Assembly (NCBI GenBank): GCA_016288295.1
Contig: JAEEYV010000052.1
Location: 8,626-72,625, forward strand
From: Alphaproteobacteria bacterium
GTDB taxonomy: Bacteria; Pseudomonadota; Alphaproteobacteria; RF32; CAG-239
DNA: 64,000 nucleotides
Reading direction: 5' to 3'
Positions 8,876 to 53,558 of the stretch are shown here, piece after piece. Position 1 is the stretch's first letter. Each line of letters begins with the position of its first letter. The notes under the pieces are model-generated. The model had not been told where the DNA came from. It saw only the letters and a list, made by a program, of their open reading frames with translations, and searched no databases. Both the position numbers and the translations under genes were made by a program.

Positions 8876-9099
8876 AATAATAAAGTTTAAAAATTTAAGA
8901 ACTGTCCCGAATATATCATCGTTCCTTTCATGTGTCAACATTTTTGTCAACAAAGGGTAATATTTTGCAATTTTTTGATTTTTTTTTACGATTTTTGTTG
9001 TTTTTTAGACGAAAACGTGTTACAATGCACATAACAAATGGAAAATATTGCAAAAATACAATAGACTAGTTAAGATTAAGACAATTGAGGGAGGTAGTT

Positions 9100-9984
9100 A
9101 TGACAACAAAAAAAACAGCAATAAAGAAAGCACGCATCTTGCATAAGATTCTTGATGGAAAAAAAGTGGCTGGACGTACAATGAGAAATGGATTGATTAA
9201 AATATTTGCTGTTGCCACCATAGCTACATCAATTGCTCCGGCTGCCAATGCTCAAAGTCGTGGAAATTCCAATCAAGGAAAAAGATATGAGTATGTGCAA
9301 CAACCGGATGGTTCTTTTCAAATGGTAGAAGTTACCAATAACCGTCAAGCTACAACCCAACAAAGCTACAGCAAAGCCTCATCCGGACAACAATCTGTCT
9401 ATGATATTTATAATAGTCTTCCTTCCTATACACGTGCCTTAATTCAAGAAAGAGGATATCAAATTTTGCCTGAATTTCAAGGGGGAAGAACCACCGGTCT
9501 TAATCGCCCTCAATCCGGTGTTGTCTATGCTTGTGCTGTACAAGATCCGTCTAACATAGATAATGTGCTCTTTCTACCGATATCCCAAGCTATTTATCCA
9601 GCCGGCAACAGAGATTTTGTAAATCTTCGTGTCCTCAGATCTTCAAAAGAGAATGCTTATAACATGATGGATCTCGGTTCAGGTCCATATGAAGCAAGAG
9701 TAGAATATGCCCAAACTCGTGAGAATGCTCAAAGAGAAAGATATAATGAACAGAGATCCAGACAGGATGATATTTATATGGATCAGAGAGATGTAAGACA
9801 AGACCGAGAGGAAACACATGTTAAAATCCAAAAAGATACTGGGTACGGCAAAGCTAATGGAGTTATGGATGGGATTGATGACGTAGATAGAACGATCAAT
9901 AGAGGAGTTCGAACAGTTGAGAATGGTGTAAATACTGTTAAAAGAAGCGTAAAAACTGTCAAACGTATATTTGGTCGTGATTAA
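9100..9984 (+). CDS. hypothetical secreted protein
   Basis: ATG 9100 is preceded by GAGGGAGG. The signal peptide ends APAANA|Q. The C-terminus carries short (R/K)xV(K/R)TV repeats. Confidence 0.65.
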   Translation: MTTKKTAIKKARILHKILDGKKVAGRTMRNGLIKIFAVATIATSIAPAANAQSRGNSNQGKRYEYVQQPDGSFQMVEVTNNRQATTQQSYSKASSGQQSVYDIYNSLPSYTRALIQERGYQILPEFQGGRTTGLNRPQSGVVYACAVQDPSNIDNVLFLPISQAIYPAGNRDFVNLRVLRSSKENAYNMMDLGSGPYEARVEYAQTRENAQRERYNEQRSRQDDIYMDQRDVRQDREETHVKIQKDTGYGKANGVMDGIDDVDRTINRGVRTVENGVNTVKRSVKTVKRIFGRD

Positions 9985-10152
9985 TACAGCCATATTTCAA
10001 ACCCTCAAAATACCGGCTTAAATACAGCCGGTATTTTTAGTTATGTCTCATTTATATTTTTGTCGAACCAAAACAAAATACTTGCAAATTTGTTTATATT
10101 GTGCTAACTTCCCCACCAATTAACATTATTAACCAATTATTCGTTTTGTTTT

Positions 10153-10464
10153 ATGAAAGTAAGATTATATCGAGTAGCACCGCCAACGATTCACATAATC
10201 AATGGACAAGCGGTGACAGTAGTAACCTTTGTCGCAAAAGAAGACAGGCATAATGCCAAACCACAGCAATTTTATGTCGTCTCCAGCCCAAACAATCTTC
10301 AGACGAATCGAGCATTTTCACACCTTTTGTTTGCAGAGTCTAATGATGAACTCGAAATAAGGACGAGTATATCTACCAGTGATTTAGGAGGTACTTCTTT
10401 GCCGGGATTTGGTGTTAGAGTTTTTGAGGTCGAGAACATCTCCTCTCCCGTCTACAATACCTAA
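10153..10464 (+). CDS. hypothetical small protein (paralog A)
   Basis: 103-aa ORF. It shares VT(V/M)VT..........(K/R)P..FY..V and (H/Y)LL.A segments with the next ORF. Confidence 0.45.
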   Translation: MKVRLYRVAPPTIHIINGQAVTVVTFVAKEDRHNAKPQQFYVVSSPNNLQTNRAFSHLLFAESNDELEIRTSISTSDLGGTSLPGFGVRVFEVENISSPVYNT

Positions 10465-10500
10465 CCGGTAGGTTTTACACCATCTAGCTTGTTAGTTTTT

Positions 10501-10779
10501 ATGGAACTCAAAAATGTCTACGTAACCGACCAGGCACAGACAATTAATCTACCGGTTGGCGAGAAAACAGTTACTATGGTGACCATCATGCTTCAACCAG
10601 AAGGTGATAAAAGGCCTAGGCCATTCTACGCCATTGTTGAACAATATGAACCGGAAAGAAAGCAGCCAGCTGTTTACTTGCTTCATGCGTTACGTGGTCA
10701 TCGTCTCAATTTTAAGGTTGACGAAGAGAATCCGTATCCCATGTTTGGTGATAAAATAGCTGATTTTCTGGATGAATAA
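10501..10779 (+). CDS. hypothetical small protein (paralog B)
   Basis: 92 aa from ATG 10501. Distant similarity to the preceding ORF. Confidence 0.45.
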   Translation: MELKNVYVTDQAQTINLPVGEKTVTMVTIMLQPEGDKRPRPFYAIVEQYEPERKQPAVYLLHALRGHRLNFKVDEENPYPMFGDKIADFLDE

Positions 10780-10816
10780 AGTCCATATCCGCCTCTTGCC
10801 GACTGCTACAAGTTTC

Positions 10817-10851
10817 AAAATCCCCGTTCTGCTTCTGCAGGCGGGGATTTT
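10817..10851 (+). terminator. Intrinsic terminator
   Basis: aaaatccccg...cggggatttt stem followed by a T-rich run. Confidence 0.7.
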
Positions 10852-11004
10852 GATTTATATTTTTTTTACTAACGAATCGTTTTTTTGCCCTCAATTAACC
10901 CTTTATTAGCTTATTTATACTATATTTAAACAAAATGGTTGCATTTTTAGACAAATTGTGTTATAAAATAACCATAAGCAATTTTTTTATGAAAGGAACG
11001 AGAT

Positions 11005-11349
11005 ATGACAGATCAAAAACAAGAAGAACGTCCATTAACCCCTAAAGAAAAAGCTAAAATTAATGATGTTATGAATCAGTCTGATGCTAAAGCCTGGTAT
11101 GGTGATAACAATAAGCGTATGGAGTTATTAAGGGAACGTGTTGAAGCAGAAGTCCGCAGTCTTACCGACGAACAACAAAAACGTGCAAACAATAATCAGC
11201 CCCCTCTAACTGCAACACAGCAGGAAATCGTCGTTACTAAATATGGTACTCCAAAATCCAAATTGCGGATTGAAAGCGAAGATGCTCTGGCTAAAGATGA
11301 ATTTAAAACATATCAGGATTCTGAGCGTAGTAATAGAGATAGAGCATAG
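11005..11349 (+). CDS. hypothetical protein (114 aa, charged)
   Basis: ORF with an AAAGGA RBS, its own promoter and its own terminator. Confidence 0.55.
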   Translation: MTDQKQEERPLTPKEKAKINDVMNQSDAKAWYGDNNKRMELLRERVEAEVRSLTDEQQKRANNNQPPLTATQQEIVVTKYGTPKSKLRIESEDALAKDEFKTYQDSERSNRDRA

Positions 11350-11374
11350 CCGTAAAACGTATATACTATATCAA

Positions 11375-11399
11375 AGAGGTCTTCGGACCTCTTTTTTTA
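11375..11399 (+). terminator. Intrinsic terminator
   Basis: agaggtc-ttcg-gacctct followed by T7. Confidence 0.8.
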
Positions 11400-11490
11400 T
11401 ACAATAATATTTTTTTGACAAAATGCTTGATTTTTCTCAAAAAAGGAATTATATTGCCCCAATAAAACATTATTTATAAATCATTGTAAT

Positions 11491-11919
11491 ATGAAAGACA
11501 GAATTTTAACTTTAATCTGCACAGCAATATTGGCAGTGTTCGGTGCTAACGTGGCATACTACTGCGTGTGCGATGTAGGCCTTGTGCCGGTTTGTATCTG
11601 TGTTGCTATCGTGGTGGCACTTGAGAGTGTTTATTCCGTAAAAAATGTGGAATTTTCGTGGATTGGATTAACATTTCATTTATGCGCGTTTTTGTGTTTT
11701 TTCTACATCGCATATAGCAATGGAACATTATTCCAAGACGTTGCCTACAGACCTCAAGGACCGGATCTTGCTGCAGGACTTTATCACAAACCTGCCGATT
11801 TCGGATGCGGTGTTTCACCGGCCTGGCAGTGGTGGCTATTCGTAGGGTTGATTTGCTTGCGAATATTCATTATTCAGCCAGTAATTTTATTCTGTGGACG
11901 CCGAAAAACAGAAAACTAA
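11491..11919 (+). CDS. hypothetical integral membrane protein
   Basis: 142 aa with about 4 hydrophobic helices. Confidence 0.5.
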   Translation: MKDRILTLICTAILAVFGANVAYYCVCDVGLVPVCICVAIVVALESVYSVKNVEFSWIGLTFHLCAFLCFFYIAYSNGTLFQDVAYRPQGPDLAAGLYHKPADFGCGVSPAWQWWLFVGLICLRIFIIQPVILFCGRRKTEN

Positions 11920-12304
11920 CAACAAGCCCTGTCTCCTCCTAAAGGAGCAGGGCTTAAAAATTACTTCATCCTTGTGAGTTAAGTCAATCAATTCGATCGA
12001 ATCAATCATTCCTCATTTTTGCTAGAAAACGTCCAGAGATTTTCAAATTTTAAAGGATATCGATATTTATAATCCAGAAGTATGTAATGACAATATGGGA
12101 TATATAATTATGGAAAGTTACGATATGTCTAGCCTTGGCCAATCATGCCAAACTAACGACAATACAAACACTATTACGATGCCCACAACTAAACAAATTT
12201 TTCATGAAAATAAGAAAAACGCCCTCCATTTGACATTTTTTTAAAAAAGAATTATGTAAAATCAATCTATTATTTAAAAAAATACAATATTTGTTATTTT
12301 TTTC

Positions 12305-12333
12305 TTGACATCTTGTTTTGATTTTGTTAAACC
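12305..12333 (+). promoter_or_regulatory. Sigma-70-like promoter of the GC-rich RNA unit
   Basis: TTGACA-17 nt-TAAACC. It is preceded by the same 14-mer, TTTTTTTCTTGACA, found at the tRNA-cluster promoter. Confidence 0.5.
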
Positions 12334-12339
12334 TCTCCC

Positions 12340-12769
12340 TACAAATTAATTATGCAGAAATTATTCACAATTATATAGCGAGAGCGCCAACACTTTCACC
12401 GAATATGGTGCCCCCGCACTTGAGAATCTCATAGCGCAAACTACGAGCCGGACCAACATCACCCGCTCAACATGGACAGGATCATGGGATAACCACGCCA
12501 TCTCCGCCGACACTAGCCGCGAAATGGATCATCGAGCCACCCACGTTTTCTTCCCGACGATTGACGACCACCAACGGACGCCGCTGCCTCATCGCAGACA
12601 CCGCCGCCCACTACGTCGAGAGAGCAAGCAGGTAGCAATAGAGGTACCAGTGTTTCACTTCAACACATCCAGGTGCCACCCAGGTAACATTCTGCAAACC
12701 GCTATGATATTCCAGCAGAGCCCCTCGTCACGCAATGTGACAGGGGCTCTGTGTTTTATATATTTTTTT
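12340..12769 (+). ncRNA. Candidate roughly 400-nt GC-rich, C-skewed non-coding RNA of unknown class
   Basis: It has its own promoter (12305-12333) and an intrinsic terminator (hairpin 12717-12750 plus T-run). The core at about 12380-12720 is far more GC-rich than the surrounding DNA. There is no credible ORF. Confidence 0.35.
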
Positions 12770-12770
12770 C

Positions 12771-12799
12771 TTGACAACATCATTTTTTAGTGTTTTACT
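12771..12799 (+). promoter_or_regulatory. Promoter of the tRNA cluster
   Basis: TTGACA-17 nt-TTTACT with the upstream T7C tract. Confidence 0.5.
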
Positions 12800-12885
12800 C
12801 ACCCCCACTAAAAAATAATTAAGAAATTATTCCATAAGACATATAAATATAAAGGTATTTTGATGTTAAAACAACGCAAACACGT

Positions 12886-12957
12886 GGAGAAATAGTTAAG
12901 TGGTCTAGAACGCACGCCATCTGGCGTAAGACCTGGGTTCGAATCCCGGTTTCTCTA
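12886..12957 (+). tRNA. tRNA-like gene with no canonical anticodon loop
   Basis: Acceptor GGAGAAA/TTTCTCT, D arm GTT-AAGTGGTCTAG-AAC and T arm CTGGG-TTCGAAT-CCCGG are intact. The anticodon arm is ACGCC-ATCT-GGCGT (4-nt loop, or a 6-nt loop CATCTG if one base pair opens). Confidence 0.5.
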
Positions 12958-12963
12958 CAAAAC

Positions 12964-13037
12964 GGATCACTAGCTCAATTGGTTAGAGCACTGCACTACG
13001 GATGCAGAGGTTTACAGTTCGAGTCTGTAGTGATTCA
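12964..13037 (+). tRNA. tRNA-Arg (anticodon ACG)
   Basis: Hand-folded cloverleaf: GGATCAC/GTGATTC acceptor, CTGCA-CTACGGA-TGCAG anticodon arm, TTCGAGT T-loop. No encoded CCA. Confidence 0.9.
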
Positions 13038-13045
13038 CAAAAAAA

Positions 13046-13115
13046 GATTGTGTAGCTCAGTGGTAGAGCAACGGATTCAAATCCGTGGTCCTCGGTTCAA
13101 ATCCGAGCACGATCT
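13046..13115 (+). tRNA. tRNA-like gene, class I body with a 6-nt anticodon loop (TTCAAA; CAA-like)
   Basis: GATTGTG/CACGATC acceptor with normal D and T arms. The anticodon arm ACGGA-TTCAAA-TCCGT has a perfect 5-bp stem but only 6 loop nucleotides. There is no long variable arm. Confidence 0.55.
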
Positions 13116-13121
13116 CAAGAC

Positions 13122-13194
13122 GAGGGTATAGCTCAGCAGGTAGAGCAGCGGATTCTTAATCTGTGTGTCCTCGGTTCGAGTCCGAGTACCCTCA
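13122..13194 (+). tRNA. tRNA-Lys (anticodon CTT)
   Basis: GAGGGTA/TACCCTC acceptor, GCGGA-TTCTTAA-TCTGT anticodon arm, TTCGAGT T-loop. Confidence 0.85.
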
Positions 13195-13196
13195 CA

Positions 13197-13271
13197 ACGT
13201 GTATAGCTCAGTTGGTTCAGAGCGCTGGAATATAGATCCAGAGGTCCCCAGTTCGAGTCTGGGTGCGCGTT
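13197..13271 (+). tRNA. Atypical class-I tRNA with anticodon ATA (formally Tyr)
   Basis: ACGTGTA/TGCGCGT acceptor (A1-U72) and CTGGA-ATATAGA-TCCAG anticodon arm (A32, U33, AUA, G37). The variable region is short, unlike bacterial tRNA-Tyr. Confidence 0.55.
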
Positions 13272-13351
13272 CTCAGATTTTGCGTTGAATTTTTAACATC
13301 TAGGATCAAGCGCCTATTTCACCTATGGCCCTCATCCGATACCATTCCCCC

Positions 13352-13383
13352 AGACCTCCTCGTGCCCAGAAGCCGGGAGGTCT
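13352..13383 (+). terminator. Probable terminator of the tRNA cluster
   Basis: agacctcc...ggaggtct stem followed by cttattt (weak U-tract). Confidence 0.4.
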
Positions 13384-13550
13384 CTTATTTGAGATAATTA
13401 ACCTTCTATACTATAACAAAACCTACAGTGTCGTGAGACACATTGTTTCCAAAGCCTCCCAAGCATCAAAGGACGCCTTGGAAACCAATAGTTAGAAAAT
13501 TTGACGTGCAGGCTCTCCACCAAGGAGTGCCTGTTTTTTTATTCGTTTTG

Positions 13551-13579
13551 TTGACATTTTTCCAGATTCGTACTAATAT
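13551..13579 (+). promoter_or_regulatory. Sigma-70-like promoter of the 13619 ORF
   Basis: TTGACA-17 nt-TAATAT. Confidence 0.5.
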
Positions 13580-13618
13580 TCTTATATGTTAATTTACACA
13601 GCCTAACGGGGGTATAAA

Positions 13619-14590
13619 ATGGGTACAGAATCTACACAATTTGAAGATGATAAACTCTGGATGCAAGACATAACAAAGGACAATCGTCGCACAATTAGCG
13701 TTGAAAATAAAGAAAAGGGCGATATGAAAATTCAATCGCTGACCATTAGTACTAAAGAAGAATATGTTGAATCGCATTATGAACCCGCCAAATATTCTTT
13801 TGACCATCCGGAACAAAATAAAGGTACAACTGCTAAAACTCGCATGACACGAGTAACTGTTTCGCTTTCAGAGACCGCTCCTAATGGTGAGTCTCGAAGC
13901 GATGCCAGAATATCTTTTCTCAAACCTGCTTCCCAAAATCCAGATGCTCCTATAGGCATAGAGCGAGATTTGGAAAATTTAGATGGTCTTATGGAAGTTT
14001 ATAAGGAAGTTGCAAAATCAAAACCGACAGTAGAAGGCTATAAAATCCAAAGTTTTTTAGATAAATATGTTTTTAATACAGATAATGGACGCTATGCACT
14101 GAATCAATATCTTTCCGAAAATCCCAGAACAGAAAAACCTGCAAAATATACAAATAATGTCAAGCTGATTCATAAAAAAGGTGAGCTTGTCGGTGCCGAA
14201 GTTATTGCTAAGGAATATTCCGGCGACAGACTTAAAGACAGCCCTGATGGTAGAGAATTTAGGGTCAGATTTAATGTTAAAAAAGATTCCAATGGCAATG
14301 ATGTTTTAGGAGTTGATATTGGAATTGCAAAACATGTCGGACCATTTAAGAGATATCTCTCTTTATGTAGTAAAGAAGCGGCAATGCAACATTCTAAATT
14401 GAAATCATTTTTTGACGACCCCAAGGCTATTCAGAAATTAATTACAGCAAAAGCCATTTCTTCAACAAACATAAATAGATTCAATATGCCGGACATTTTA
14501 GAAAATGCTCGTCAGGCAGCATTTGATGAGCTTAATAATAGAGAAGTTGCATTAATGCGTAGTATGCGAAATAAAAGAGCCAATGGATAA
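13619..14590 (+). CDS. hypothetical protein (323 aa)
   Basis: ORF with a GGGGG RBS, its own promoter and its own terminator. No family recognised. Confidence 0.6.
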   Translation: MGTESTQFEDDKLWMQDITKDNRRTISVENKEKGDMKIQSLTISTKEEYVESHYEPAKYSFDHPEQNKGTTAKTRMTRVTVSLSETAPNGESRSDARISFLKPASQNPDAPIGIERDLENLDGLMEVYKEVAKSKPTVEGYKIQSFLDKYVFNTDNGRYALNQYLSENPRTEKPAKYTNNVKLIHKKGELVGAEVIAKEYSGDRLKDSPDGREFRVRFNVKKDSNGNDVLGVDIGIAKHVGPFKRYLSLCSKEAAMQHSKLKSFFDDPKAIQKLITAKAISSTNINRFNMPDILENARQAAFDELNNREVALMRSMRNKRANG

Positions 14591-14609
14591 TTGATTTTAT
14601 TTTCAAATA

Positions 14610-14634
14610 ACTCATCCTTCGGGGTGAGTTTTTT
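14610..14634 (+). terminator. Intrinsic terminator
   Basis: actcatcc-ttcg-ggggtgagt followed by T5. Confidence 0.8.
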
Positions 14635-14658
14635 GATGTCCGCTTTCTAAAAAAAACA

Positions 14659-14687
14659 TTGACATATTTGGACAAATGTGTTACAAA
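14659..14687 (+). promoter_or_regulatory. Sigma-70-like promoter of the 14727 ORF, with a conserved spacer motif
   Basis: TTGACA-17 nt-TACAAA. The spacer contains TTGGACAAATGTGT. Confidence 0.5.
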
Positions 14688-14726
14688 CTACCCAATTCAC
14701 TATACTATTAATATTAATTATTCAAT

Positions 14727-15164
14727 ATGGAAAACCAAAGAAAAATCAAGGAACTTGCTGCCAAGTTCAAAGCTCTTCTTGCCAAAGGCGAGAACGTTAC
14801 TACCCCATGGGGTTATTGCTGCAAAGAGTGTCATGACTACACATCGATGTTTGCAAGGCTGCTCGCTTCACCGGAGTGTATTGCGGATCTGAAGATTAAG
14901 CACGATCCCCAGACAAACATAGTAACATTCCTTGGCACCGAGGAAATGTCGCAAGATGCCAAGCAAGGCAACCTTGACATGCTGGGCATCATTGCTTGCG
15001 GTTTACCGGAAGAAGTTCTTCCTCTTTATGCGAGAACTATCGCTAAGGATGCTGTCGGTGATATGCCTGGTGCGACCAGATCACAAAAAGCGCGCGAGCG
15101 CTACAAGGTGCGCCAGTACATCACTAAAATCTATCAGATGTATCAAAGAGCTCTCGCCGCATAA
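14727..15164 (+). CDS. hypothetical protein (145 aa)
   Basis: ORF bracketed by a promoter and a terminator. Confidence 0.55.
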   Translation: MENQRKIKELAAKFKALLAKGENVTTPWGYCCKECHDYTSMFARLLASPECIADLKIKHDPQTNIVTFLGTEEMSQDAKQGNLDMLGIIACGLPEEVLPLYARTIAKDAVGDMPGATRSQKARERYKVRQYITKIYQMYQRALAA

Positions 15165-15181
15165 ACCCGACACAGACAACA

Positions 15182-15217
15182 ACAAAGCCTCAAACTCACC
15201 AGAGTTTGGGGCTTTGT
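15182..15217. terminator. Bidirectional terminator hairpin
   Basis: acaaagcctcaaactc-acca-gagtttggggctttgt lies between convergent ORFs. Confidence 0.7.
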
Positions 15218-15219
15218 TG

Positions 15220-15975
15220 TTATTCAAATTGATGTCCTTTATATATAACTTTTGTTACGTAAAACTGCCTGCAATGTCCGGCTCCCGGCATACCGCCATA
15301 AAGTTGTTTGGTGTGAACTTCACCTTTTTGGGTTGCTGTCTCAATATGAAACCACGAAAACTTTCCGGTTCCGCGCCAGTCCATCAAATATCCCTCAAAC
15401 TCAGCAATATCTCCCTTTTTTAAAAGTGCAATTGCTCTCCTTACGGCCCGTGTTGCCGGAATAACGTGATTGTTATTAATTTCATCTCTGTTTATAATCG
15501 GGGCATCTGCGTACATATATTTGTAGTTCAACGCTCGTTCTTCATGGTCGAATTGAATTTTTTTCAAATTATTTTCATCAGAGGTTTTTCCGTGGACAAT
15601 CGAAACATCAACTGCTGCCACAGCATTGTAGAGTTTTGTTCCCTCTTTTCCGGCGGAATGATACCACGTATTAATTATCCCATCGTTCCAGTCCACCCAG
15701 ACCACACGTCCGCGCACTTTGTAATGCACACGCAGACGATACAATATGTCATAACCGCTGATGTTTACCGCCTGCCATGCTTGGTTGCCTAAATCTTCAA
15801 AACTCTCATTTAGGGGAGCATCTTTTTCAGCAACTTTTTGCCCCCAAATCAAATTGTATGTAACTGGTTTAAGCCAATGCCAACCGACAATAGCCACTGC
15901 CACAGCCAAATATATAGTTTGTTTTCTGGTTAAAGATATTTTCAAAGTTCTTATCTCTTCAATCTGTTCCACCAT
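15220..15975 (-). CDS. hypothetical membrane-anchored protein (251 aa)
   Basis: ORF with an N-terminal TM helix (IYLAVAVAIVGWHWL). It overlaps the upstream ORF by about 25 nt. Confidence 0.6.
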   Translation of the reverse strand: MVEQIEEIRTLKISLTRKQTIYLAVAVAIVGWHWLKPVTYNLIWGQKVAEKDAPLNESFEDLGNQAWQAVNISGYDILYRLRVHYKVRGRVVWVDWNDGIINTWYHSAGKEGTKLYNAVAAVDVSIVHGKTSDENNLKKIQFDHEERALNYKYMYADAPIINRDEINNNHVIPATRAVRRAIALLKKGDIAEFEGYLMDWRGTGKFSWFHIETATQKGEVHTKQLYGGMPGAGHCRQFYVTKVIYKGHQFE

Positions 15976-16487
15976 TCTTTAAACAGAGTTGCATAACTGT
16001 CTTTTTTAGCAACTTCAACCACATTGTTTTCGCAAGTCATATTCAAATTTTTTATAAAATCATTCAGTTCACTGATACTTTGCGGAGTATTAAAAACATT
16101 GTTGCTCATAAAATCTAAAAGTGCGGTACGTTTGGAATTATCCGCAGGAAGACAATGATTTTCGATTTTATATTTCAAATACATCAGCCCTTCGGCTCCC
16201 CGCATCCGATTATTAAAATCGAACCACTTATCAATCGCAAGCTTAACTTGAGTTGTTTCAGCATTTTTATAATTGATTAAAGTAACTTTAATATCGGTAC
16301 TGTCGCTATTTCCAGTTTTGCTTTTTGAAGCAATGGGCAGAACGTTAATTTCGCCTAAAGAATTACCTGGAATTTTATTCCTAAATCTGTAAGAAACCGC
16401 TCCCAACTTTTTTTTATCATGAGCATTGGACGTAGCCAGGCAGTTTATATTGCAAGTTCCACTTTCAAAATGCTCTAAACTGGTCAT
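15951..16487 (-). CDS. hypothetical protein (178 aa)
   Basis: Start moved to ATG 16487 (MTSLEHF), which is preceded by AGGAGGAG. Confidence 0.6.
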   Translation of the reverse strand: MTSLEHFESGTCNINCLATSNAHDKKKLGAVSYRFRNKIPGNSLGEINVLPIASKSKTGNSDSTDIKVTLINYKNAETTQVKLAIDKWFDFNNRMRGAEGLMYLKYKIENHCLPADNSKRTALLDFMSNNVFNTPQSISELNDFIKNLNMTCENNVVEVAKKDSYATLFKEWWNRLKR

Positions 16488-16833
16488 GTTTTCTCCTCCT
16501 AACAAACAGCACTAATATAATACAATTTATAATTTAAGAAAAGCTTAAAAATAACACAAAAGCAAAAACAACGCCACCACGTCATTTTTGCTTTTGTAAT
16601 TTTTCAGGTTATGCCGCTTATTACTTCGAGAATTTGGTTGTAAGTCGGAGCAGGGCGCCTACAACGTATGGGATTAGGCATGGGAGCAAAATTGATGTCC
16701 TTAAAAACTCGCCGCTCACCTCCATTTCTTACCTGTGGCAAAAGCATCAAATAGGCTTCAACTTTTTTTATTATAATCAAAGCATAAAAAAGACAGCCCA
16801 ACACGGGGATGCCTTTTGCTTGAGAATTTAAAA

Positions 16834-17580
16834 TTAGATACTTCTTATTTTACCATCTCTACCTACTCTATTAACGGGAATTCCTTTAGCTCGTTGCCCG
16901 CTAGTATCATTTCTAAGTCTATTCAACTCTTCTCGTGAGGGACCGTTGGTTGCTTGTGGTCTCCTTCTGGTAGAAGTTCTAGCTGTAGTTCGTTTGCGTT
17001 TGTCAAAAGTTCCTTTAGGTACTATTTCAATGCCGGGTTTTATGCTCTTTGAAGCAATAATATCGTTTCCCCATGCTTTTTTCATTTCTTGTATTGATTG
17101 TTTTAATTTGTCCGCATAGCCGCGATATCCGGTTGAATCAGTAAAAAGTCTAGGATTTTTATCCATTTCATCAAATATATATTGTGCATTACGCATGCTA
17201 TTATGAGCAGTTATATGGCATTTTTCTCGCATAAATTGAATACTGCTTTGTTCATCTAAATTATTTAATATGCGTTGTAAAGCATATTCGCAATCTTCTT
17301 GGTTTTTTCCTGGGATTTGCTTAAATGAATCAAAAATAACCATAACTTGTTGCCCACGCCTTCTGCAATCGGCTACCATGGCAATCAATCCCTCCCAACC
17401 GATATCGGGTTTGTTCTTATCACTAAAACATTTTTGATTATGCGTATCTTTGAACTTTTTGCCGGAAAATTTATCCCTAAACCAACCGACAAATTTTTCT
17501 TTTATTCCTTTTCTATCATAATCCAAACGATATCTCAGAAATAAAGGTTTTGCATTTTTTTGAAAATCTTCTAAATCCAT
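16834..17580 (-). CDS. hypothetical protein (248 aa, basic C-terminal tail)
   Basis: ORF with no recognised family. Confidence 0.55.
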   Translation of the reverse strand: MDLEDFQKNAKPLFLRYRLDYDRKGIKEKFVGWFRDKFSGKKFKDTHNQKCFSDKNKPDIGWEGLIAMVADCRRRGQQVMVIFDSFKQIPGKNQEDCEYALQRILNNLDEQSSIQFMREKCHITAHNSMRNAQYIFDEMDKNPRLFTDSTGYRGYADKLKQSIQEMKKAWGNDIIASKSIKPGIEIVPKGTFDKRKRTTARTSTRRRPQATNGPSREELNRLRNDTSGQRAKGIPVNRVGRDGKIRSI

Positions 17581-17645
17581 TTCTTTTCTCCCTCAACTAT
17601 CTTATTTTCTATATTATCATAATTTGTAGATTACATCAACAAAAT

Positions 17646-35270: not shown

Positions 35271-36140
35271 ATGTTACTACATTTACTACTTAATACTTTG
35301 ATCGTTGGAGCCGGATACGGCTTAACGGCTATGGCGTTTCGCTTGATGTATTCTGTCTCACCGTTTTTTAATATGACATTAGGTGCTGTTGCTGCGCTAG
35401 GTGCTTATACTGCTTATGGATTAATCTCTTTGTGCGGATTGCCTATGTGGGTTGGGGTTATCGGCGCAATAGCCGCCTGTGCTTTGTTTTCATACTTTTT
35501 GGAGGCCGGAATTTATACGCCGATGCGTAATCATGGTGCATCATCAATGGTATTGATGGTAGCATCATTAGGCGTTTATACAATATTTGAGTCAATAATT
35601 TTACTGGTTTTTGGTCCGCAATACCAAAATTTGGGTTCTATTCAATCAGCAACAACCGTCAATTTAGGTTTCGCAAGTATTCCTTTGGTTCAAGCTTTAA
35701 CAATTGTTGCTTATTTTGTTTGTTTTGGCTTCTTAAACTACTTATTGCACCATACATTTATTGGTCTAAAAATCCGTGCCGTTCACGATAGTGCCTCTCT
35801 GGCCAACACAATCGGGATGAAAAACAACCAAATTATTTTATTGGTATCGGTTTTAACCGGAGTGGTGCTGGGTGTCAACGGGGTTTTAATCGGTTATGAT
35901 ACTGGTATGGTGCCTACAATGGGATTTAATCTGTTGTTCAAAGGTATGATTGGTGCGATCATCGGTGGATTAGCCAATATGCGTGGTGCATTCTTTGGGG
36001 CGCTGTTCCTGGCATTTGCAGAAAATGTCGGTGTGCTGATTTTTGCATCAGAATGGCGTGATTTGATAGCCTTTGTTATCTTTATTACATTTTTATCTTT
36101 ACGTCCGAAAGGGATTTTTCAAAAAAAGGAGATTAATTAA
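35271..36140 (+). CDS. livH: branched-chain amino acid-type ABC transporter permease
   Basis: 289-aa polytopic protein with a LivH-like N-terminus (LNTLIVGAGYGLTAMAFRLMY). Its stop overlaps the next ATG (TAATG). Confidence 0.85.
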   Translation: MLLHLLLNTLIVGAGYGLTAMAFRLMYSVSPFFNMTLGAVAALGAYTAYGLISLCGLPMWVGVIGAIAACALFSYFLEAGIYTPMRNHGASSMVLMVASLGVYTIFESIILLVFGPQYQNLGSIQSATTVNLGFASIPLVQALTIVAYFVCFGFLNYLLHHTFIGLKIRAVHDSASLANTIGMKNNQIILLVSVLTGVVLGVNGVLIGYDTGMVPTMGFNLLFKGMIGAIIGGLANMRGAFFGALFLAFAENVGVLIFASEWRDLIAFVIFITFLSLRPKGIFQKKEIN

Positions 36141-37231
36141 TGAAAAAACTGATTTTAGGTTTATGTGCTGTACTTGCATTATCAGCTTGTAAGGATGAAA
36201 AAAAGAACGTTGTGCAAGCAGACACCAGACCTGTGATAAAAGTGGGTGCAAGCCTTCCGTTGACAGGTAATATGTCAGATATTGGTATTTCTGCACAAAG
36301 ATCTCTACAACTAGCGCTGGATGAATGGAATCAAAGAGATACAAAAAATAAATATGAGCTTATTGTAGAAGATGATGGCTTTGATGCCAAAAAAGTAGCA
36401 ATGATTACGCATAAATTGGTTAATCAGGACAAAGTAAAAGCTGTTTTTACTGTTTTTTCAATAGGAGCTAATGTTGTTAGCCCGATTACTCAACAGGATA
36501 AAATTATTCATATGACTTGCGCATACGGTTCACAACCGGCAGAAGGGTTTTACAATTTTAACAATATTACACAGTACGAAAATCAAACAGAATTAATGCT
36601 TAAAGAACTTAAAAAAAGAGGTATTAAGTCAATAGGAATGTTGATTTCTAATAATATTGGTTCGACACAGCAAGCAGAAATTTTGGAAAACAAAATTAAG
36701 CAAGATGGAACAATAAAAATTATCGGAAAAGAAATTTTTAATCCTGGAACAATAGATTTTAGGATGATTATTCAAAAAATAGTTGCCAATGGTGAGCCGG
36801 ATATTTTTTATGTTGATGGTATTACTCCTGATGCCACTCTTGTTTCTAAGTATTTGAAAGAAGTCACGGGAAAAATAAATTTGACAACGATTAATGATTT
36901 TATTGAAACGCCAAAAAGAGAAAGTTTTGAAGGATTATGGTTTGTTGAATCTGCATCAGGAACAGATGAGTTTAATAATAAGTTTGAAAATAAGTATGGA
37001 GAACCGGTCTTTTTGTGCGGTGCCAATACTTATGATAATTTAGATTTATTTATAGAAGCATGTGAAAAATCAGAACATTGCGATAGTGACGAGGTTGTAA
37101 ACAACTTGCTTTCTGTTAACAATAGGAATGGAGCCATTGGAAAATTTTCTATTGATGATCAGGGGATAGTGCAATCCGAAGCTAGCGTTAAAAAAATTGA
37201 AAACGGTAAAGCTATCAAAGTAGAGGAGTAA
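36140..37231 (+). CDS. Liv-type (PBP type 1) substrate-binding lipoprotein, paralog 1 of 14
   Basis: MKKLILGLCAVLALSAC lipobox, followed by RPVIKVGASLPLTGNMSDIG. Confidence 0.85.
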   Translation: MKKLILGLCAVLALSACKDEKKNVVQADTRPVIKVGASLPLTGNMSDIGISAQRSLQLALDEWNQRDTKNKYELIVEDDGFDAKKVAMITHKLVNQDKVKAVFTVFSIGANVVSPITQQDKIIHMTCAYGSQPAEGFYNFNNITQYENQTELMLKELKKRGIKSIGMLISNNIGSTQQAEILENKIKQDGTIKIIGKEIFNPGTIDFRMIIQKIVANGEPDIFYVDGITPDATLVSKYLKEVTGKINLTTINDFIETPKRESFEGLWFVESASGTDEFNNKFENKYGEPVFLCGANTYDNLDLFIEACEKSEHCDSDEVVNNLLSVNNRNGAIGKFSIDDQGIVQSEASVKKIENGKAIKVEE

Positions 37232-37235
37232 AAGT

Positions 37236-38342
37236 ATGAAAAAACTGATTTTGAGTTTATGTGTAATTCTGACATTAACAGCCTGCAAAGATGAAAAAAA
37301 GAACGTTGCCCAAGCAGACACAAGACCTGTGATCAAGATCGGTGCGACATTACCATTGTCCGGAGATTTGTCTTATGTCGGTATTGGAGCACAGAATGCA
37401 TTGCAGATGCTATTAGAAAAATGGCAAAATCAGAATACAAAATATAAATATGAGTTGCTTTTTGAAAATGATATGGTTAAGCCTCAACAAGCAGCTATAA
37501 ATACTCAAAAGTTCATTAATATGGATAAAGCAAGAGTTGTTGTTTCGGTTTTTGGTATTGTTGATAGGCCGGTTGATGAAATTGCCAATCAGAATAAAAT
37601 TATTTCACTGTCATGTTCGCATGGAAAAAGAAATATTCCTGAATATGGACTTAATACCGGAATGCAAAATGAAGAAAATTATGCTGAAGCTCTGAGACAA
37701 TTGAAAAAAAGAAATGTCAAAACAGTCGCTTTAGTAGGAAGCCATGCGGCAGTTAGTAATGTCATTCTGGACTATATGGCAGAGCATCTACCTCAAGATA
37801 ATATCCAAGTTTTAGCTAACGAACGATATGCTATTGGTGAAACTGATTATCGGCTATCCATCCAAAAAATCGAAGATATGAAACCTGATTATTATCTTGT
37901 TTTCGGAGTTGAGCCGATGAATAGTATTTTTGTTAAGCAATATAATGAATTAACCGGTAAAAACAATATCGCGGGACTGGGAACTTTTTGTAATATAGAT
38001 TCAAAGGTTTTTCCCGCAATTGAAGGAGTTTGGTCTACTGATTTTGTAGGAAATAATGAAACTTTTGTAAAGGAGTACTCAAATAAATATCATACCCGCG
38101 TAGAAGTTTGTTCTGCTAATCTTTATGATGGATTAGACATGATAATAACAGCATTTGAAAATACGCCTGTTGAAGGAAATGCGACTATTCCCAATAACTT
38201 TGCAGTTATGAAAAACATAAAAGAACAGAAAGTTTGGAACGGAGCCAGTGGTAAGATTAAAATTGAAGAAAATGGAATTGTACGGTCTGAAGTAAAATCC
38301 CGTATATATAAAAATGGTCAATGGGTAAAAACTGAGGAGTAA
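37236..38342 (+). CDS. Liv-type substrate-binding lipoprotein, paralog 2
   Basis: LTAC lipobox, followed by RPVIKIGATLPLSGDLSYVG. Confidence 0.85.
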   Translation: MKKLILSLCVILTLTACKDEKKNVAQADTRPVIKIGATLPLSGDLSYVGIGAQNALQMLLEKWQNQNTKYKYELLFENDMVKPQQAAINTQKFINMDKARVVVSVFGIVDRPVDEIANQNKIISLSCSHGKRNIPEYGLNTGMQNEENYAEALRQLKKRNVKTVALVGSHAAVSNVILDYMAEHLPQDNIQVLANERYAIGETDYRLSIQKIEDMKPDYYLVFGVEPMNSIFVKQYNELTGKNNIAGLGTFCNIDSKVFPAIEGVWSTDFVGNNETFVKEYSNKYHTRVEVCSANLYDGLDMIITAFENTPVEGNATIPNNFAVMKNIKEQKVWNGASGKIKIEENGIVRSEVKSRIYKNGQWVKTEE

Positions 38343-38346
38343 AAGC

Positions 38347-39447
38347 ATGAAAAAGCTGATTTTGAGTTTATGTGTAATTCTGACATTAACAGCCTGCAAA
38401 GATGAAAAAAAGAACGTTGCCCAAGCAGACACAAGACCTGTGGTCAAGCTTGGTGCAATTTTACCGCTAACTGGTTCTCAAGCTCCTATGGGAGAAGCCG
38501 CAAAAGCAGGTATGCAAAAAGCATTGAAAGAGAACACTAATCCAAATCAGCACTATGATTATCAGCTTGTTTTTGAAGATAACCAAGCAAAACTGCCATC
38601 CATGCCGACAATCGCCAATAAAATGGTTATGCAGGATAATATTGATGTTTTAGGAACTATAACGACCGCTATGGCAAGGGTTATTGCGCCGATTTCCGAC
38701 CAAAAAGAAAAAGTGTTATATGCTTTTTCTATCGAGCAAGAAAAATATCAACGTTTTGGTAAATATGCTTTTACTCAAGGTACATCTATTGAAGCACTTA
38801 GCGACAAATTTGTGGAATCATTTGCCAAGAACAATCAAGATAATATCTCGATTTTTGTTGAAAATATAGGTGTACTTGGTCCTCTAACTTCCTATTTGAA
38901 AACAAAATTAAATGAAAAAGGTATTAACCATAAAATCAATGAATTTAACCCGGGTGAAACTGATTTTCGTATTGCCATTGAAAAAACAAAAGCTGACGGA
39001 TACACAAATTTTGGTGTTTTTGCTTTTCCACCTGAAAGAAATATCATTATGAAACAGCTCTTGGAAGCAGGCATTTCATATAATAATTTCTATTCCTTTA
39101 GTTTAGATATGGATTATGTCGCAGAAAATTATGATGGAATAAAAACTATTACTTATAACTGCGGAACAGAAGATTTTGTAGAAAGTATTCAAAAAGAATA
39201 TAATATTGACAGTACCTACGGTTCAGCGGAATTTTATGATTTTGTTAGCATGATGATTGAAGCTTATGAAGCTCTTTATAAAGAGGGACAGAAACCAACG
39301 GCTGAAGAAATTGTTTCATATATTCATAATAAAAAAGAGTTTCCTTGTATGAGCGGTCAATGTGTTGTTCATTCCAATGGCTTTATAATTAATGATCCGA
39401 TTCTCAGAATTTATACAAATAATAAATGGAAAACTATTGAAGAATAA
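38347..39447 (+). CDS. Liv-type substrate-binding lipoprotein, paralog 3
   Basis: LTAC lipobox, followed by RPVVKLGAILPLTGSQAPMG. Confidence 0.85.
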   Translation: MKKLILSLCVILTLTACKDEKKNVAQADTRPVVKLGAILPLTGSQAPMGEAAKAGMQKALKENTNPNQHYDYQLVFEDNQAKLPSMPTIANKMVMQDNIDVLGTITTAMARVIAPISDQKEKVLYAFSIEQEKYQRFGKYAFTQGTSIEALSDKFVESFAKNNQDNISIFVENIGVLGPLTSYLKTKLNEKGINHKINEFNPGETDFRIAIEKTKADGYTNFGVFAFPPERNIIMKQLLEAGISYNNFYSFSLDMDYVAENYDGIKTITYNCGTEDFVESIQKEYNIDSTYGSAEFYDFVSMMIEAYEALYKEGQKPTAEEIVSYIHNKKEFPCMSGQCVVHSNGFIINDPILRIYTNNKWKTIEE

Positions 39448-39477
39448 AATTAAATGTTCAATAAAGGAAAATAAAAT

Positions 39478-40200
39478 ATGTATGACAGCGAATTTTGGGA
39501 TGATGTTTATAAAAAAGGATTTATTCCATGGTCAGATGAGAATAAGGATAACTTTTTTGTTAAAAAAATCATACAGGATGTAGAGCCGGAACGATCTGCC
39601 GAAATTTTAGATTATGGTTGTGGTGAAGGAATACTCGGAAAATATTTTTTAGAACGTGGTTTTAAGGTAGATTTTGCTGAAATATCAAAAATCCAAGTTA
39701 ATGCGTTAAGAAAAAAATTTGGTAATCGAAGTACAGTGTATGCCGTTAATGAGCCACAAGACATTGAACACAAATATGATCTCATTATATGCAGCTCTGT
39801 GATGCATCACATTGAACCGCAAAGATGGGGAAGTTTTCTAAAACAATTTAGGGAATTACTCAAAAAAGGCGGTGTTCTATGGGTATCCGGTCTTGATGAA
39901 AATGATAAAATATTTGAACAATATCATGGTATTGCTCCGGCGACAGGGCACAAATGTTGGACTATTAATGATTTGGGAAGAATTGCTGAAAAGAACGGTT
40001 TTGAAATTTCAGCAAGCTATGTTCAAGATATTAAAATTGATGCTTTTGAAACCCCTCGAATGACGCGTGTTTTTTGCTTAAAACCTAAAACTAAGCAATT
40101 AAAGGATAAAAGTAGGCCTGCGAGTGAGGGAAATAATGACGATTTATCTTCACAAATTACAACACAAAGTATCTTAGATAAAAAAAGGCTACAAAGATGA
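39478..40200 (+). CDS. class I SAM-dependent methyltransferase embedded in the liv operon
   Basis: ILDYGCGEGILGKYFLERGFKVDFAEIS. The N-terminal FWDDVYKKGFIPW is TPMT/TehB-like, judged by eye. Confidence 0.7.
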   Translation: MYDSEFWDDVYKKGFIPWSDENKDNFFVKKIIQDVEPERSAEILDYGCGEGILGKYFLERGFKVDFAEISKIQVNALRKKFGNRSTVYAVNEPQDIEHKYDLIICSSVMHHIEPQRWGSFLKQFRELLKKGGVLWVSGLDENDKIFEQYHGIAPATGHKCWTINDLGRIAEKNGFEISASYVQDIKIDAFETPRMTRVFCLKPKTKQLKDKSRPASEGNNDDLSSQITTQSILDKKRLQR

Positions 40201-40245
40201 AACATAATCTATTATTAAAGCAAATATAATATGGAGAACTAATCT

Positions 40246-41112
40246 ATGGAATATTTAATAAATCTGGCAATACTTTTTGGCATATACAGCATGTTGGCAT
40301 TGTCGCTTAATATGCTCATCGGCATGAGCGGGTTGGTATCTTTGGCGCAGGCCGCTTTTTATGGTATCGGTGCTTATGCTACGGCAATCGGCATGACCAC
40401 ATTTGGATTAGGATTTTTTACTACCATTATTTTAGGTATTGTCGTCAATGCAATATTGGCCTTTGTAGTCGGTAAGATTTTAGCTCGTTTCCAAGGAGAT
40501 TATTATGCCATTGTTTCCGCCGGATTATCAATTATCGTATTTTCAATCCTGCAAAACTGGAAAACTGTTACACACGGCCCGCTGGGCATTTTTGGAATTG
40601 GTAAACCTGCAATTGGCTCATATACTTTTTATTCCAATACTGCGTTTTTAGGTTTGGTTGTAATATTCACAATTGTTTTATACGCATTGTATCAGTGGAT
40701 AAACCATTCTTCTTTCGGCCGAGTTTTAAAAGCTCTGCGCGAAGATGAAAAATTGGCGCAATCTATGGGATACAAAACTAAACACTTTAAGAGTGTGATT
40801 TTTGTATTGTCGGCCTCCTTATCAGGTATCGCCGGTGCATTTTTTGCTAGTTATATTGCTTTTATTGATCCCTCAAGTTTCCAACTTAAAGAAGGTATTT
40901 TCTTATTCACTATTATTATTGTCGGGGGACTATCTTCGGCAAGAGGAAGTGTGGTCGGAGCATTGATCCTGATCTCCTTGCCGGAAGTATTACGTTTTAT
41001 TGGGTTGCCATATGAAACAGCTGCCCAACTTCAGCAAATGATATACGGCGCAATGCTGTTGTTGATGATGATTTTCAAACCGCAAGGTTTGTTTGGTAAA
41101 TATCGGATGTAA
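40246..41112 (+). CDS. livM: branched-chain amino acid-type ABC transporter permease
   Basis: 288 aa with a LivM-like segment SMLALSLNMLIGMSGLVSLAQAAFYGIGAY. Confidence 0.85.
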   Translation: MEYLINLAILFGIYSMLALSLNMLIGMSGLVSLAQAAFYGIGAYATAIGMTTFGLGFFTTIILGIVVNAILAFVVGKILARFQGDYYAIVSAGLSIIVFSILQNWKTVTHGPLGIFGIGKPAIGSYTFYSNTAFLGLVVIFTIVLYALYQWINHSSFGRVLKALREDEKLAQSMGYKTKHFKSVIFVLSASLSGIAGAFFASYIAFIDPSSFQLKEGIFLFTIIIVGGLSSARGSVVGALILISLPEVLRFIGLPYETAAQLQQMIYGAMLLLMMIFKPQGLFGKYRM

Positions 41113-41114
41113 CT

Positions 41115-41933
41115 ATGATGAAAAAGATTAAAGACATACTAAATTTTAGAAAACAGCAAACTGTGCCGGTGTGTGATATCAATCCGCCGTCGGCCTACGG
41201 TTCGAACATAATCACCATTAAAGACCTTACCAAGCAATTTATGGGGATTAGAGCGATTGACGACCTTTCGGTCAACATTCCTCAAGCGATGACCATCGGT
41301 CTTATTGGTTCCAACGGTTCCGGAAAAACGACACTTGTTAACATCTTAACCGGAATGTTACGTCCCGACGCCGGAGAGATAACTGTTCGCGACAAAAAAC
41401 GTTCGCATATTAAAGCCAACGAACTCCGCAAATATCGTATTGCTCGCACTTTTCAAGATGGTCGCTTGATTGAACAAATATCTGTCGTTGATAACTTATT
41501 ATTATCTGTAGCAGAAAATGATTTAGTCGACAGCCTCAAAGAGGTTTCTATCAAAGACTATCAGGATCGTCTAGAAAAAGTACTGGAAATGACATCTTTA
41601 ACCGAACATCGTCATAAGAATGCCGAAGAACTGTCTTATGGTCTGCGAAAACTTTTGGAAATTGGCCGTGTGTTGATGCAAGATGCAGATATATACTTTT
41701 TCGATGAACCATTTTCCGGCTTGTTCCCAGAAATTGTTGAGCAAGTCTGTGAAATCATTTGCGGACTGCAGAAACAAGGCAAAACAATAGTGATTATTGA
41801 ACATAATATGGGGTTAATCCGCCGGTTGTGCAATTATACAATAGTGCTTAATCACGGTAAATTATTAGCAGAGGGAAATCCTGAAGAAGTTCTGCAAAGC
41901 AAAGCTGTTCGAGAGTCTTATTTAGGAGTTTAA
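41115..41933 (+). CDS. livG: ABC transporter ATP-binding protein
   Basis: Walker A GSNGSGKTT, signature LSYGLRK, Walker B IYFFDEP. Confidence 0.85.
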   Translation: MMKKIKDILNFRKQQTVPVCDINPPSAYGSNIITIKDLTKQFMGIRAIDDLSVNIPQAMTIGLIGSNGSGKTTLVNILTGMLRPDAGEITVRDKKRSHIKANELRKYRIARTFQDGRLIEQISVVDNLLLSVAENDLVDSLKEVSIKDYQDRLEKVLEMTSLTEHRHKNAEELSYGLRKLLEIGRVLMQDADIYFFDEPFSGLFPEIVEQVCEIICGLQKQGKTIVIIEHNMGLIRRLCNYTIVLNHGKLLAEGNPEEVLQSKAVRESYLGV

Positions 41934-41948
41934 ACGAAAGGAAAAACA

Positions 41949-43037: not shown

Positions 43038-43061
43038 TCTAGATAATAGGGGGATTAAGTA

Positions 43062-44153: not shown

Positions 44154-44157
44154 AAAC

Positions 44158-45243: not shown

Positions 45244-45247
45244 AAAT

Positions 45248-46321: not shown

Positions 46322-46341
46322 AACAAAAAGGGAGTAATAAT

Positions 46342-47433: not shown

Positions 47434-47436
47434 GAC

Positions 47437-48534: not shown

Positions 48535-48538
48535 AAAT

Positions 48539-49618: not shown

Positions 49619-49622
49619 TAAT

Positions 49623-50702: not shown

Positions 50703-50706
50703 TAAT

Positions 50707-51801: not shown

Positions 51802-51805
51802 ATAA

Positions 51806-52828: not shown

Positions 52829-52830
52829 TA

Positions 52831-53529: not shown

Positions 53530-53558
53530 AATAGTTGAACTCAATGAAAGGTATTCAG

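Follow-up and report, generated by a model that had tools for sequence, protein, structure and literature searches.

The window analysed here, a 64,000-nt stretch of chromosomal DNA from an uncultured gut or rumen alphaproteobacterium (contig JAEEYV010000052.1), carries on its plus strand a GC-rich island that is preceded by a promoter of the kind found at the adjoining tRNA array and followed by an intrinsic terminator (positions 12297 to 12758). In our estimate the chances are about even that this island is a genuine, lineage-restricted and strain-variable non-coding transcription unit, one cassette in a bounded variable region. As judged from the sequence, it has what marks a candidate small-RNA gene, namely a conserved promoter and a conserved Rho-independent terminator around a non-coding segment, and it is best filed as a lineage-restricted non-coding RNA candidate with two known alleles. 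An earlier note, made from the letters of the window alone, had suggested an unrecognised RNA class. This wording is too strong, and a new structured RNA class is not supported: there are two alleles in one clade, the interior of the unit diverges at least at the local synonymous rate, and no covariation is found outside the terminator.

The core of the island (12380-12716; 115 C, 93 A, 72 G, 57 T) contains more C than G and more A than T, and has the highest GC content among the 300-nt stretches of the 64 kb (0.563, compared with a mean of 0.371 and a standard deviation of 0.046). The earlier note had rightly described the segment as far richer in GC than its surroundings, and its base count for 12541-12600 (24 C, 12 G, 13 A, 11 T) is exact.

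Promoter, predicted fold and second allele

The promoter of the unit, promoter A, consists of an upstream T-rich run, a -35 element CTTGACA (12304-12310), a 14-nt spacer, a TG dinucleotide at 12325-12326 (extended -10) and a non-canonical -10 element, TAAACC (12328-12333). Because of the latter, promoter A is not listed by a generic sigma-70 scan. Transcription would start near 12340. The 14-mer TTTTTTTCTTGACA, which the earlier note had pointed out at both the unit and the tRNA cluster, indeed occurs exactly twice, at 12297 and 12763. Taken alone it is not rarer than chance: with up to two mismatches it has six matches, a number reached by 12 of 100 shuffled sequences. Its significance comes from the extended paralogy of which it is part. 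It lies within a 72-nt direct repeat (12295-12366 and 12761-12832, 71% identity; family D18) that recurs in seven promoter-leader copies from five loci, two of A-type and five belonging to B-type tRNA promoters. CTTGACA, TG, T..A and positions of the leader are invariant in these seven copies, and all have the same layout: CTTGACA, 14-nt spacer, TGn, weak -10, CCCnAC start region and an AT-rich near-palindromic leader. The suggestion of an independent promoter-to-terminator unit with the promoter type of the tRNA cluster is supported. The sequence upstream of tRNA-Glu is also as had been reported (TTTCTTGACC). In all loci, the leader of the unit and that of the tRNA operon are paralogous; the AT-rich near-palindrome in the leader of the unit (AATTAAT/ATTATT) could serve as an operator or form a weak 5' hairpin.

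Using the adjacent 323-aa protein as an anchor to relatives, we found a single relative of the island, which we call allele 2. It is present as one identical sequence in five contigs from independent assemblies of ruminant-gut metagenomes in ENA, complete in three (L096, L097, L110) and partial in two (L098, L099). Look-ups of exact proteins gave no further alleles. The genomes with allele 2 belong to the species-level clade of the window: to the left of the unit they are 97.8-99.5% identical in nucleotide sequence, the upstream 142-aa gene is 99.8% identical, and the synonymous divergence (dS) is 0-0.12 in lysA and in the 251-aa, transglutaminase and TPR-methyltransferase genes. The haplotypes diverge from 11967 onwards. 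The 323-aa orphan gene on the other side (13619-14590) lies in a divergent haplotype block, with a dS of 0.36 for L096 compared with 0-0.12 in the surrounding genes, and a ratio of non-synonymous to synonymous divergence (dN/dS) of 0.18. The description of the island as an orphan has to be qualified by this one diverged allele.

Allele 2 has the same composition as the window allele (GC 0.56; 92 C, 62 G, 70 A, 52 T), and both alleles, with their excess of C over G and of A over T, stand in genomes of GC 0.37-0.38. Promoter and leader, the 5' hairpin H1, the arms of the closing helix and the terminator all surpass the interior in conservation. Between the alleles, identity is 92.5% in the leader and about 83% in promoter and leader together (counted from the alignment), compared with 63.8% of 271 aligned nt, with 13 indels, in the body, which starts at H1 and stops short of the terminator. 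The conserved blocks of the unit are GUGCCCCCGC, GAGAAUyUCAUAGC and CCCGACGAUUGAC; the last (12553-12565) is the one well-conserved block inside the interior.

Folded alone, each allele gives the same order of elements: H1, a long-range helix around the interior, and the terminator. All eight pairs of H1 are kept in both alleles, with one G-U pair changed to A-U and a 9-nt indel restricted to the loop. The 13-nt inverted repeat (12424-12436 and 12700-12712) is conserved, and the 7-bp core of the closing helix (UCAUAGC/GCUAUGA) is invariant and present in the minimum-energy folds of both alleles. The terminator hairpin (12716-12751) and its T-run are strong, as claimed in the earlier note, and dominate the fold. 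In allele 2 the inner stem GUCAC/GUGAC of the terminator is replaced by UCAUC/GAUGA, and one further G-C pair is replaced by A-U. In total, 26 of 26 tested pairs form in both alleles, of which 24 are invariant and one, the G-U to A-U change in H1, is one-sided. The predicted RNA would be about 420 nt long (about 365 nt in allele 2), with a 5' hairpin and a long-range helix closing a C-rich, G-poor and mostly single-stranded interior of 220-263 nt, followed by the terminator. The coordinates are collected in Table 1.

Table 1. Elements of the unit and of the surrounding locus (window positions unless a locus is named)
Feature	Position	Strand	Remarks
Variable cassette region containing the unit	11964-13428		Boundaries kept in L096, L108, L126 and L101; contents differ
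Promoter A	12297-12333	+	Layout read from sequence
Leader CCCTACAAATTAATTATGCAGAAATTATTCACAA	12334-12377	+	37/40 aligned positions the same in both alleles
Open reading frame, judged non-coding	12350-12790	+	146 codons
Hairpin H1: GCGAGAGCGCC, loop, GGUGCCCCCGC	12378-12417	+	Predicted in each allele separately and by RNAalifold
Closing helix, 5' arm GAGAAUCUCAUAGCG	12422-12436	+	Inverted repeat with 12700-12712, 13 nt, 92% complementary
Interior, C-rich, G-poor, little structure	12437-12699	+	263 nt in the window, about 220 nt in allele 2
Closing helix, 3' arm CGCUAUGAUAUUCC	12700-12714	+	Pairs with 12422-12436
Intrinsic terminator	12716-12758	+	9-bp stem, bulged C, 5-bp stem, loop GCAAU, then GUGUUUUAU
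Promoter B and leader of the tRNA array	12763-12885	+	Paralogue of promoter A; context, outside the transcript
Pilin genes at the island position	L084 8-436; L105 3237-3776; L108 2845-3384; L102 1478-2017; L126 606-1145		
Counterparts of the tRNA array	L096 7267-7574; L084 566-716; L101 647-797; L108 3510-3586		

Coding potential and searches for relatives

The earlier note found no credible open reading frame (ORF) in the island, taking the frame at 12524 to be 88 codons long. The frame is in fact open for 146 codons, a length reached by 12 of 2000 shuffles, and the verdict nevertheless stands: the frame has neither a start codon nor a ribosome-binding site before 12524, and it is not conserved. 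Its codon periodicity is weak. C at the third position is mildly raised (0.39-0.41), while G at the first position is too low (0.22-0.25, compared with 0.31-0.36 in real genes). The frame is destroyed in allele 2, which has stop codons in all six frames, and the indels between the alleles (9, 1, 1, 2, 31, 5, 6, 3, 3, 7, 5, 2 and 4 nt) are mostly not multiples of three. We consider the coding question settled because allele 2 has stops in every frame; that the island is a protein-coding gene or recent pseudogene, be it in the 88- or 146-codon frame or on the minus strand, is extremely improbable. As far as can be seen from the sequence, the unit is non-coding.

No protein homologue was found for any of the six frames among about 15 billion proteins. 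These searches included a word search of 5.8 billion proteins (with frame +2, then with the other five frames concatenated) and an exhaustive phmmer search of 1.84 billion representatives, whose single match, P0001, is an artefact of 17 residues against an 18-fold tandem-repeat ORF. Searching the three plus-strand frames and two minus-strand ORFs against Pfam gave no significant match, the best having an E-value of 0.17 (11.9 bits, compared with a cutoff of 27 bits). A metagenome match to the peptide TAAHYVE, which might have pointed to an integrase remnant, extends over 18 residues only; the Pfam integrase family is not detected and we attribute the match to chance. We also rejected a decayed pilin gene in the island, as tblastn with three full pilins gave no match, and a remnant of a glycine-zipper gene on the minus strand. 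The earlier note had named a fragment of a high-GC protein gene among the outcomes that would speak against it; no protein-gene origin was found.

Searches for known RNAs were equally negative. Rfam 15, searched on both strands with the gathering threshold and with E ≤ 10 as cutoffs, gave no match within 12300-12715; the families covered include RNase P, tmRNA, SRP, 6S, GOLLD, ROOL, ribozymes, riboswitches and alphaproteobacterial small RNAs. There was no match to the body of allele 2 either, and weak sub-threshold minus-strand matches lie over the terminator and promoter B only. The earlier note, which had seen no signature of RNase P, tmRNA, SRP or 6S and had named a confident Rfam match among the outcomes that would refute it, is borne out on both strands of both alleles. 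A decayed tRNA array can be dismissed: the Rfam tRNA model (E ≤ 10) and ARAGORN (80% threshold) found nothing on either strand, and nhmmer --max with a profile built from the local tRNAs, which recovered five of five positive controls, gave no match to either allele at E ≤ 100.

At the DNA level, blastn of the island against phages and plasmids revealed no relative. Searches of GTDB genomes with an exact 34-mer and a degenerate pattern of the conserved blocks, and of IMG/VR with four patterns, found nothing real; 13 IMG/VR matches to CCCGACGATTGACNACC are due to chance. The same is true of ten 20-mer matches in JGI metagenomes, which fall in unrelated genes on contigs of 56-72% GC (nine at 66-72%). 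A template-repeat test found no second copy of the unit in the window, and the island contains no iterons or tandem repeats. A G-quadruplex on the G-rich strand was rejected, as the C-runs are 50-70 nt apart (read from the sequence).

The arrangement of the unit resembles a retron msr-msd RNA in that an inverted repeat (similar to a1/a2) closes a variable region and UAGC stands at the end of the 5' arm. Unlike in a retron, there is no reverse transcriptase (RT) domain in the flanking ORFs searched, known msd regions are much shorter than the one enclosed here, and no match of Rfam or retron type was obtained. The RT search covered 20 window ORFs between 1.3 and 37 kb, including all ORFs of about 100 aa or more that flank the unit (9-17.6 kb), and used Pfam; ten flanking ORFs compared with PHROGs, NCBIfam and PADLOC gave neither an RT nor any other match. 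A retron was rejected on these grounds. A diversity-generating retroelement was also rejected, given that there is no second copy in the window and no RT among the ORFs searched, and that the alleles differ at all bases (T/C 30, A/G 19, A/C 16, A/T 15, C/G 12, G/T 6).

Divergence of the interior and competing explanations

Several observations weigh against a functional unit. The interior differs between the alleles at 0.36 of the aligned positions, in addition to the indels, compared with a proportion of synonymous differences (pS) of 0.288 and a dS of 0.36 in the neighbouring 323-aa gene, which belongs to the same haplotype block. As its mismatch is not below the neighbour's synonymous difference, the interior is without detectable sequence constraint. 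Differing columns have a GC content of 0.47-0.50 and identical columns one of 0.60. The body does not fold significantly better than shuffled sequences (z-scores: window -0.98, allele 2 -1.85, minus strand of the window -0.54), in keeping with the earlier note's view that the plus-strand RNA cannot be fully paired. The sole compensatory change among the 26 tested pairs is in the terminator, and the other helices show no covariation; since just two distinct sequences exist, support for the helices consists in conservation. Candidate binding motifs are either not conserved or not enriched: GGA occurs six times in the window (shuffle mean 4.4) and once in allele 2, CCUCC is absent, and the recurrence of CCACC/CGCC-type motifs that had been suggested is marginal, with three CCACC in each allele (a number reached by 53 and 32 of 500 shuffles) and CCGC enriched in the window allele only. 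A search of the 64-kb window for antisense targets gave no complementarity above the chance level. Finally, the distribution is extremely narrow, with degenerate block patterns and 20- to 34-mers giving no real match in GTDB genomes, IMG/VR and JGI metagenomes.

Much of this evidence is what would be expected of a transcribed remnant, an explanation to which we assign a real but clearly smaller chance than an even one; the earlier note had named a remnant of foreign DNA as its alternative. Foreign or formerly functional GC-rich DNA would have been captured behind a duplicated tRNA promoter and leader; its interior would decay neutrally toward an AT-rich composition, and of the unit just the promoter and the terminator would be kept, the latter to prevent read-through into the downstream tRNA promoter, with the RNA itself having no function. 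The rate of change and the many indels in the interior, and the lack of folding beyond shuffles, fit this explanation. So does the excess of AT in the differing columns, which would arise if a GC-rich insert were ameliorating toward the composition of its AT-rich genome; the column pattern would be no different if constraint were concentrated in G/C-rich helices. The restriction to one species-level clade, with a pilin gene at this position in other lineages, and a plus-strand C skew that equals the antisense of ordinary genes also agree with a remnant. On the other side, searches with all frames and both strands revealed no donor among the proteins searched, or in phage, plasmid, GTDB, IMG/VR or JGI DNA. 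Pure junk does not predict that promoter, leader, H1, a long-range helix of 7-8 bp and terminator are better kept than the rest, and both alleles still have a GC content of 0.56 after about 0.4-0.5 substitutions per site.

The composition of the interior raises the question of Rho. In Rho-dependent termination, sites of Rho utilisation (rut) are defined by an excess of C over G and a lack of structure. A composition-selected transcript might serve as a rut-like platform that recruits or titrates Rho, controlling read-through into the tRNA operon or acting as a decoy. C outnumbers G across essentially the whole 260-nt core, and its excess peaks at 22 per 78 nt, a value beyond the 99.9th percentile for the window. 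Little structure is predicted in the body, composition rather than sequence is common to the alleles, and the RNA would be unshielded by ribosomes because there is no ORF. The sequence has the features expected of a rut site (at least 78 nt with C in excess of G, little structure, untranslated). Like rut regions and C-rich untranslated leaders, the unit is G-poor and keeps its composition more than its sequence; unlike them, it is free-standing and ends in a conserved intrinsic terminator instead of leading into a gene. Neither this terminator nor the 3' helix arm would serve a purpose if Rho had already released the RNA, and YC dinucleotides are not enriched in the unit over shuffles. The antisense strands of window genes commonly reach an equally high C skew, showing that the skew of the core is not unique. 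The patch that ranks next in GC content within the window, also C-skewed (60991-61464, minus strand), is the antisense of a glycine-zipper (Rick_17kDa_Anti) gene, and C-rich, skewed composition alone is no sign of an RNA gene because this antisense strand matches it. We regard a role in Rho loading as highly unlikely.

A base-pairing small RNA is hardly more probable. Here the functional part would be the 5' 100 nt (leader, H1 with its CCCCC run, GAGAAUyUCAUAGC) and possibly CCCGACGAUUGAC, with the rest as spacer. Conservation is indeed highest in the first 70 nt of the body and in the 13-nt block, and promoter and Rho-independent terminator are typical of small-RNA genes. The lack of a target in the window speaks against this idea, as does the length of 365-420 nt, which is long for a seed-type small RNA. 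Furthermore, a perfect 13-nt run is unsurprising at 64% identity, about 0.3 being expected in 271 positions.

If the non-coding transcription unit that we favour is functional, the exposed single-stranded C/A-rich region is most likely the acting part of its RNA, because the ends are conserved and the interior has been preserved in composition and not in sequence. We conjecture that it may act as a sponge or decoy, sequestering a single-stranded-RNA-binding protein or a G-rich RNA partner. Through their common leader, the unit and the tRNA array are probably regulated together. The unit shares with known sponge RNAs (CsrB/RsmZ, CrcZ, 6S RNA) a length in the range of about 180-420 nt, its independence, its own terminator and the proposed single-stranded action. 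It differs from them in having no conserved repeated motifs and no A-rich boxes of the CrcZ type; a sponge of the CsrA/RsmE type, which requires multiple conserved GGA in loops, was rejected on the GGA counts of six and one. A more elaborate proposal is a composition-selected, stem-closed, C-rich decoy RNA that has the promoter and leader of the non-canonical tRNA array and serves as an alternative cassette to the pilin gene in a bounded, strain-variable conflict locus (for instance involving phages or toxins), where an arms race instead of drift would account for its fast sequence turnover. We think this improbable.

Screens of GC-rich intergenic regions in AT-rich genomes usually recover structured, covarying and widely distributed RNAs. 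The unit resembles lineage-specific small and long non-coding RNA genes in being a GC-rich intergenic island that lacks an ORF, has conserved ends and comes with a promoter and a Rho-independent terminator of its own. It is unlike the RNAs from such screens in that its interior has little structure and changes at a neutral-like rate, and in that two alleles are found in one species. If functional, it would be a bacterial non-coding RNA selected for composition and end structure instead of sequence, and co-regulated with unusual tRNAs. If it is a decaying insert, it calls for caution in screens that equate GC-rich intergenic regions in AT-rich genomes with structured RNAs.

The variable cassette region and its surroundings

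The practical yield of this analysis is the definition of the cassette region (11964-13428), whose alternative contents are a pilin gene, the unit with the GC-rich transcript, or odd tRNAs numbering 0-5, and which is a more interesting object than the island alone. It is a strain-variable locus in a very poorly known, uncultured gut and rumen alphaproteobacterial lineage; the lysyl-tRNA synthetase (LysRS) of the window is at most 89% identical to proteins of metagenome-assembled genomes labelled "Alphaproteobacteria bacterium" or "uncultured Azospirillum sp.". The left edge of the region is a conserved terminator (11925-11957), and the right edge is a conserved element beginning at 13429. Between strains and species, the GC island alternates with a type IVb pilin gene in this region. 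The island is present in the window, L096, L097 and L110, and pilin genes (PilS/Bundlin domains) in L102, L103, L105, L106, L108 and L126; contig-truncated upstream ORFs in L084, L101 and L104 resemble the same pilin gene. The type IVb pilin of the sister lineages, 179 aa long and with a class III signal peptide, is encoded where the window has the GC island, and a 29-nt leftover of the pilin 5' region is found upstream of the island in the window (12102-12131). Pilin gene or island is followed by a B-type promoter and 0-5 tRNAs, with the exception of L105, which has neither B promoter nor tRNAs. Independent metagenome assemblies (L001, L003, L098, L099) end within the segment or at its edges (compared with window positions 12042-13474), and these breaks are consistent with strain heterogeneity within samples at the locus.

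The tRNA array beside the unit (12886-13272) is non-canonical and strain-variable. Two of its tRNAs have 6-nt anticodon loops (CATCTG, TTCAAA), one reads as 'Tyr-ATA', and Arg-ACG and Lys-CTT are also present; the number of tRNAs per locus varies from 0 to 5, and an orthologous slot holds Lys-CTT in the window and Glu-TTC in L096. Long tRNA arrays have been described on variable islands (PMC8421152), and tRNAs of phages and mobile elements with altered anticodon loops escape anticodon nucleases (PMC11464382). The unit resembles tRNA-array operons in that it shares promoter and leader with the array, is its direct neighbour and belongs to the same strain-variable segment; unlike them, the island has no tRNA-like sequence or fold on either strand.

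The element at the right edge (13429-13587) is non-coding and 93% identical in L101-L104, where the downstream protein is just 59% identical. It contains two hairpins, GTGTCGTGAGACAC and GTTTCCAAAGCC...GGCGCCTTGGAAAC, and a terminator, GCAGGCTCTCC...GGAGTGCCTG followed by T7, after which comes the TTGACA-17-TAATAT promoter of the 323-aa gene. This element is a small-RNA or regulatory candidate that is better conserved than the GC island. Among close alleles of the 323-aa gene (L105, L108), dN/dS is about 0.9-1.0, calculated from few substitutions. An AlphaFold model of the protein has a predicted local distance difference test (pLDDT) score of 42 and is unusable.

The cassette region is embedded in a block of about ten orphan ORFs between lysA and tRNA-Leu (approximately 9000-17600), none of which has a match in Pfam, PHROGs, NCBIfam or PADLOC. 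Distant relatives lack the block and have only 1.3-3 kb between LysRS and tRNA-Leu; because of this short distance we consider the block clade-specific. In some relatives it additionally encodes an AAA ATPase. A second replaced patch lies at 11001-11374, where a 114-aa ORF is replaced by an unrelated 146-aa ORF in L096, L097 and L110, between flanks that are more than 97% identical. Elsewhere in the window (35271-54635), at least 14 paralogous lipoprotein genes, each about 1.1 kb long, follow one another in tandem. The single member scanned (36140-37231) has a Peripla_BP_6 periplasmic-binding-protein domain, and the other members have the same repeated N-terminal sequence, which resembles a signal peptide.

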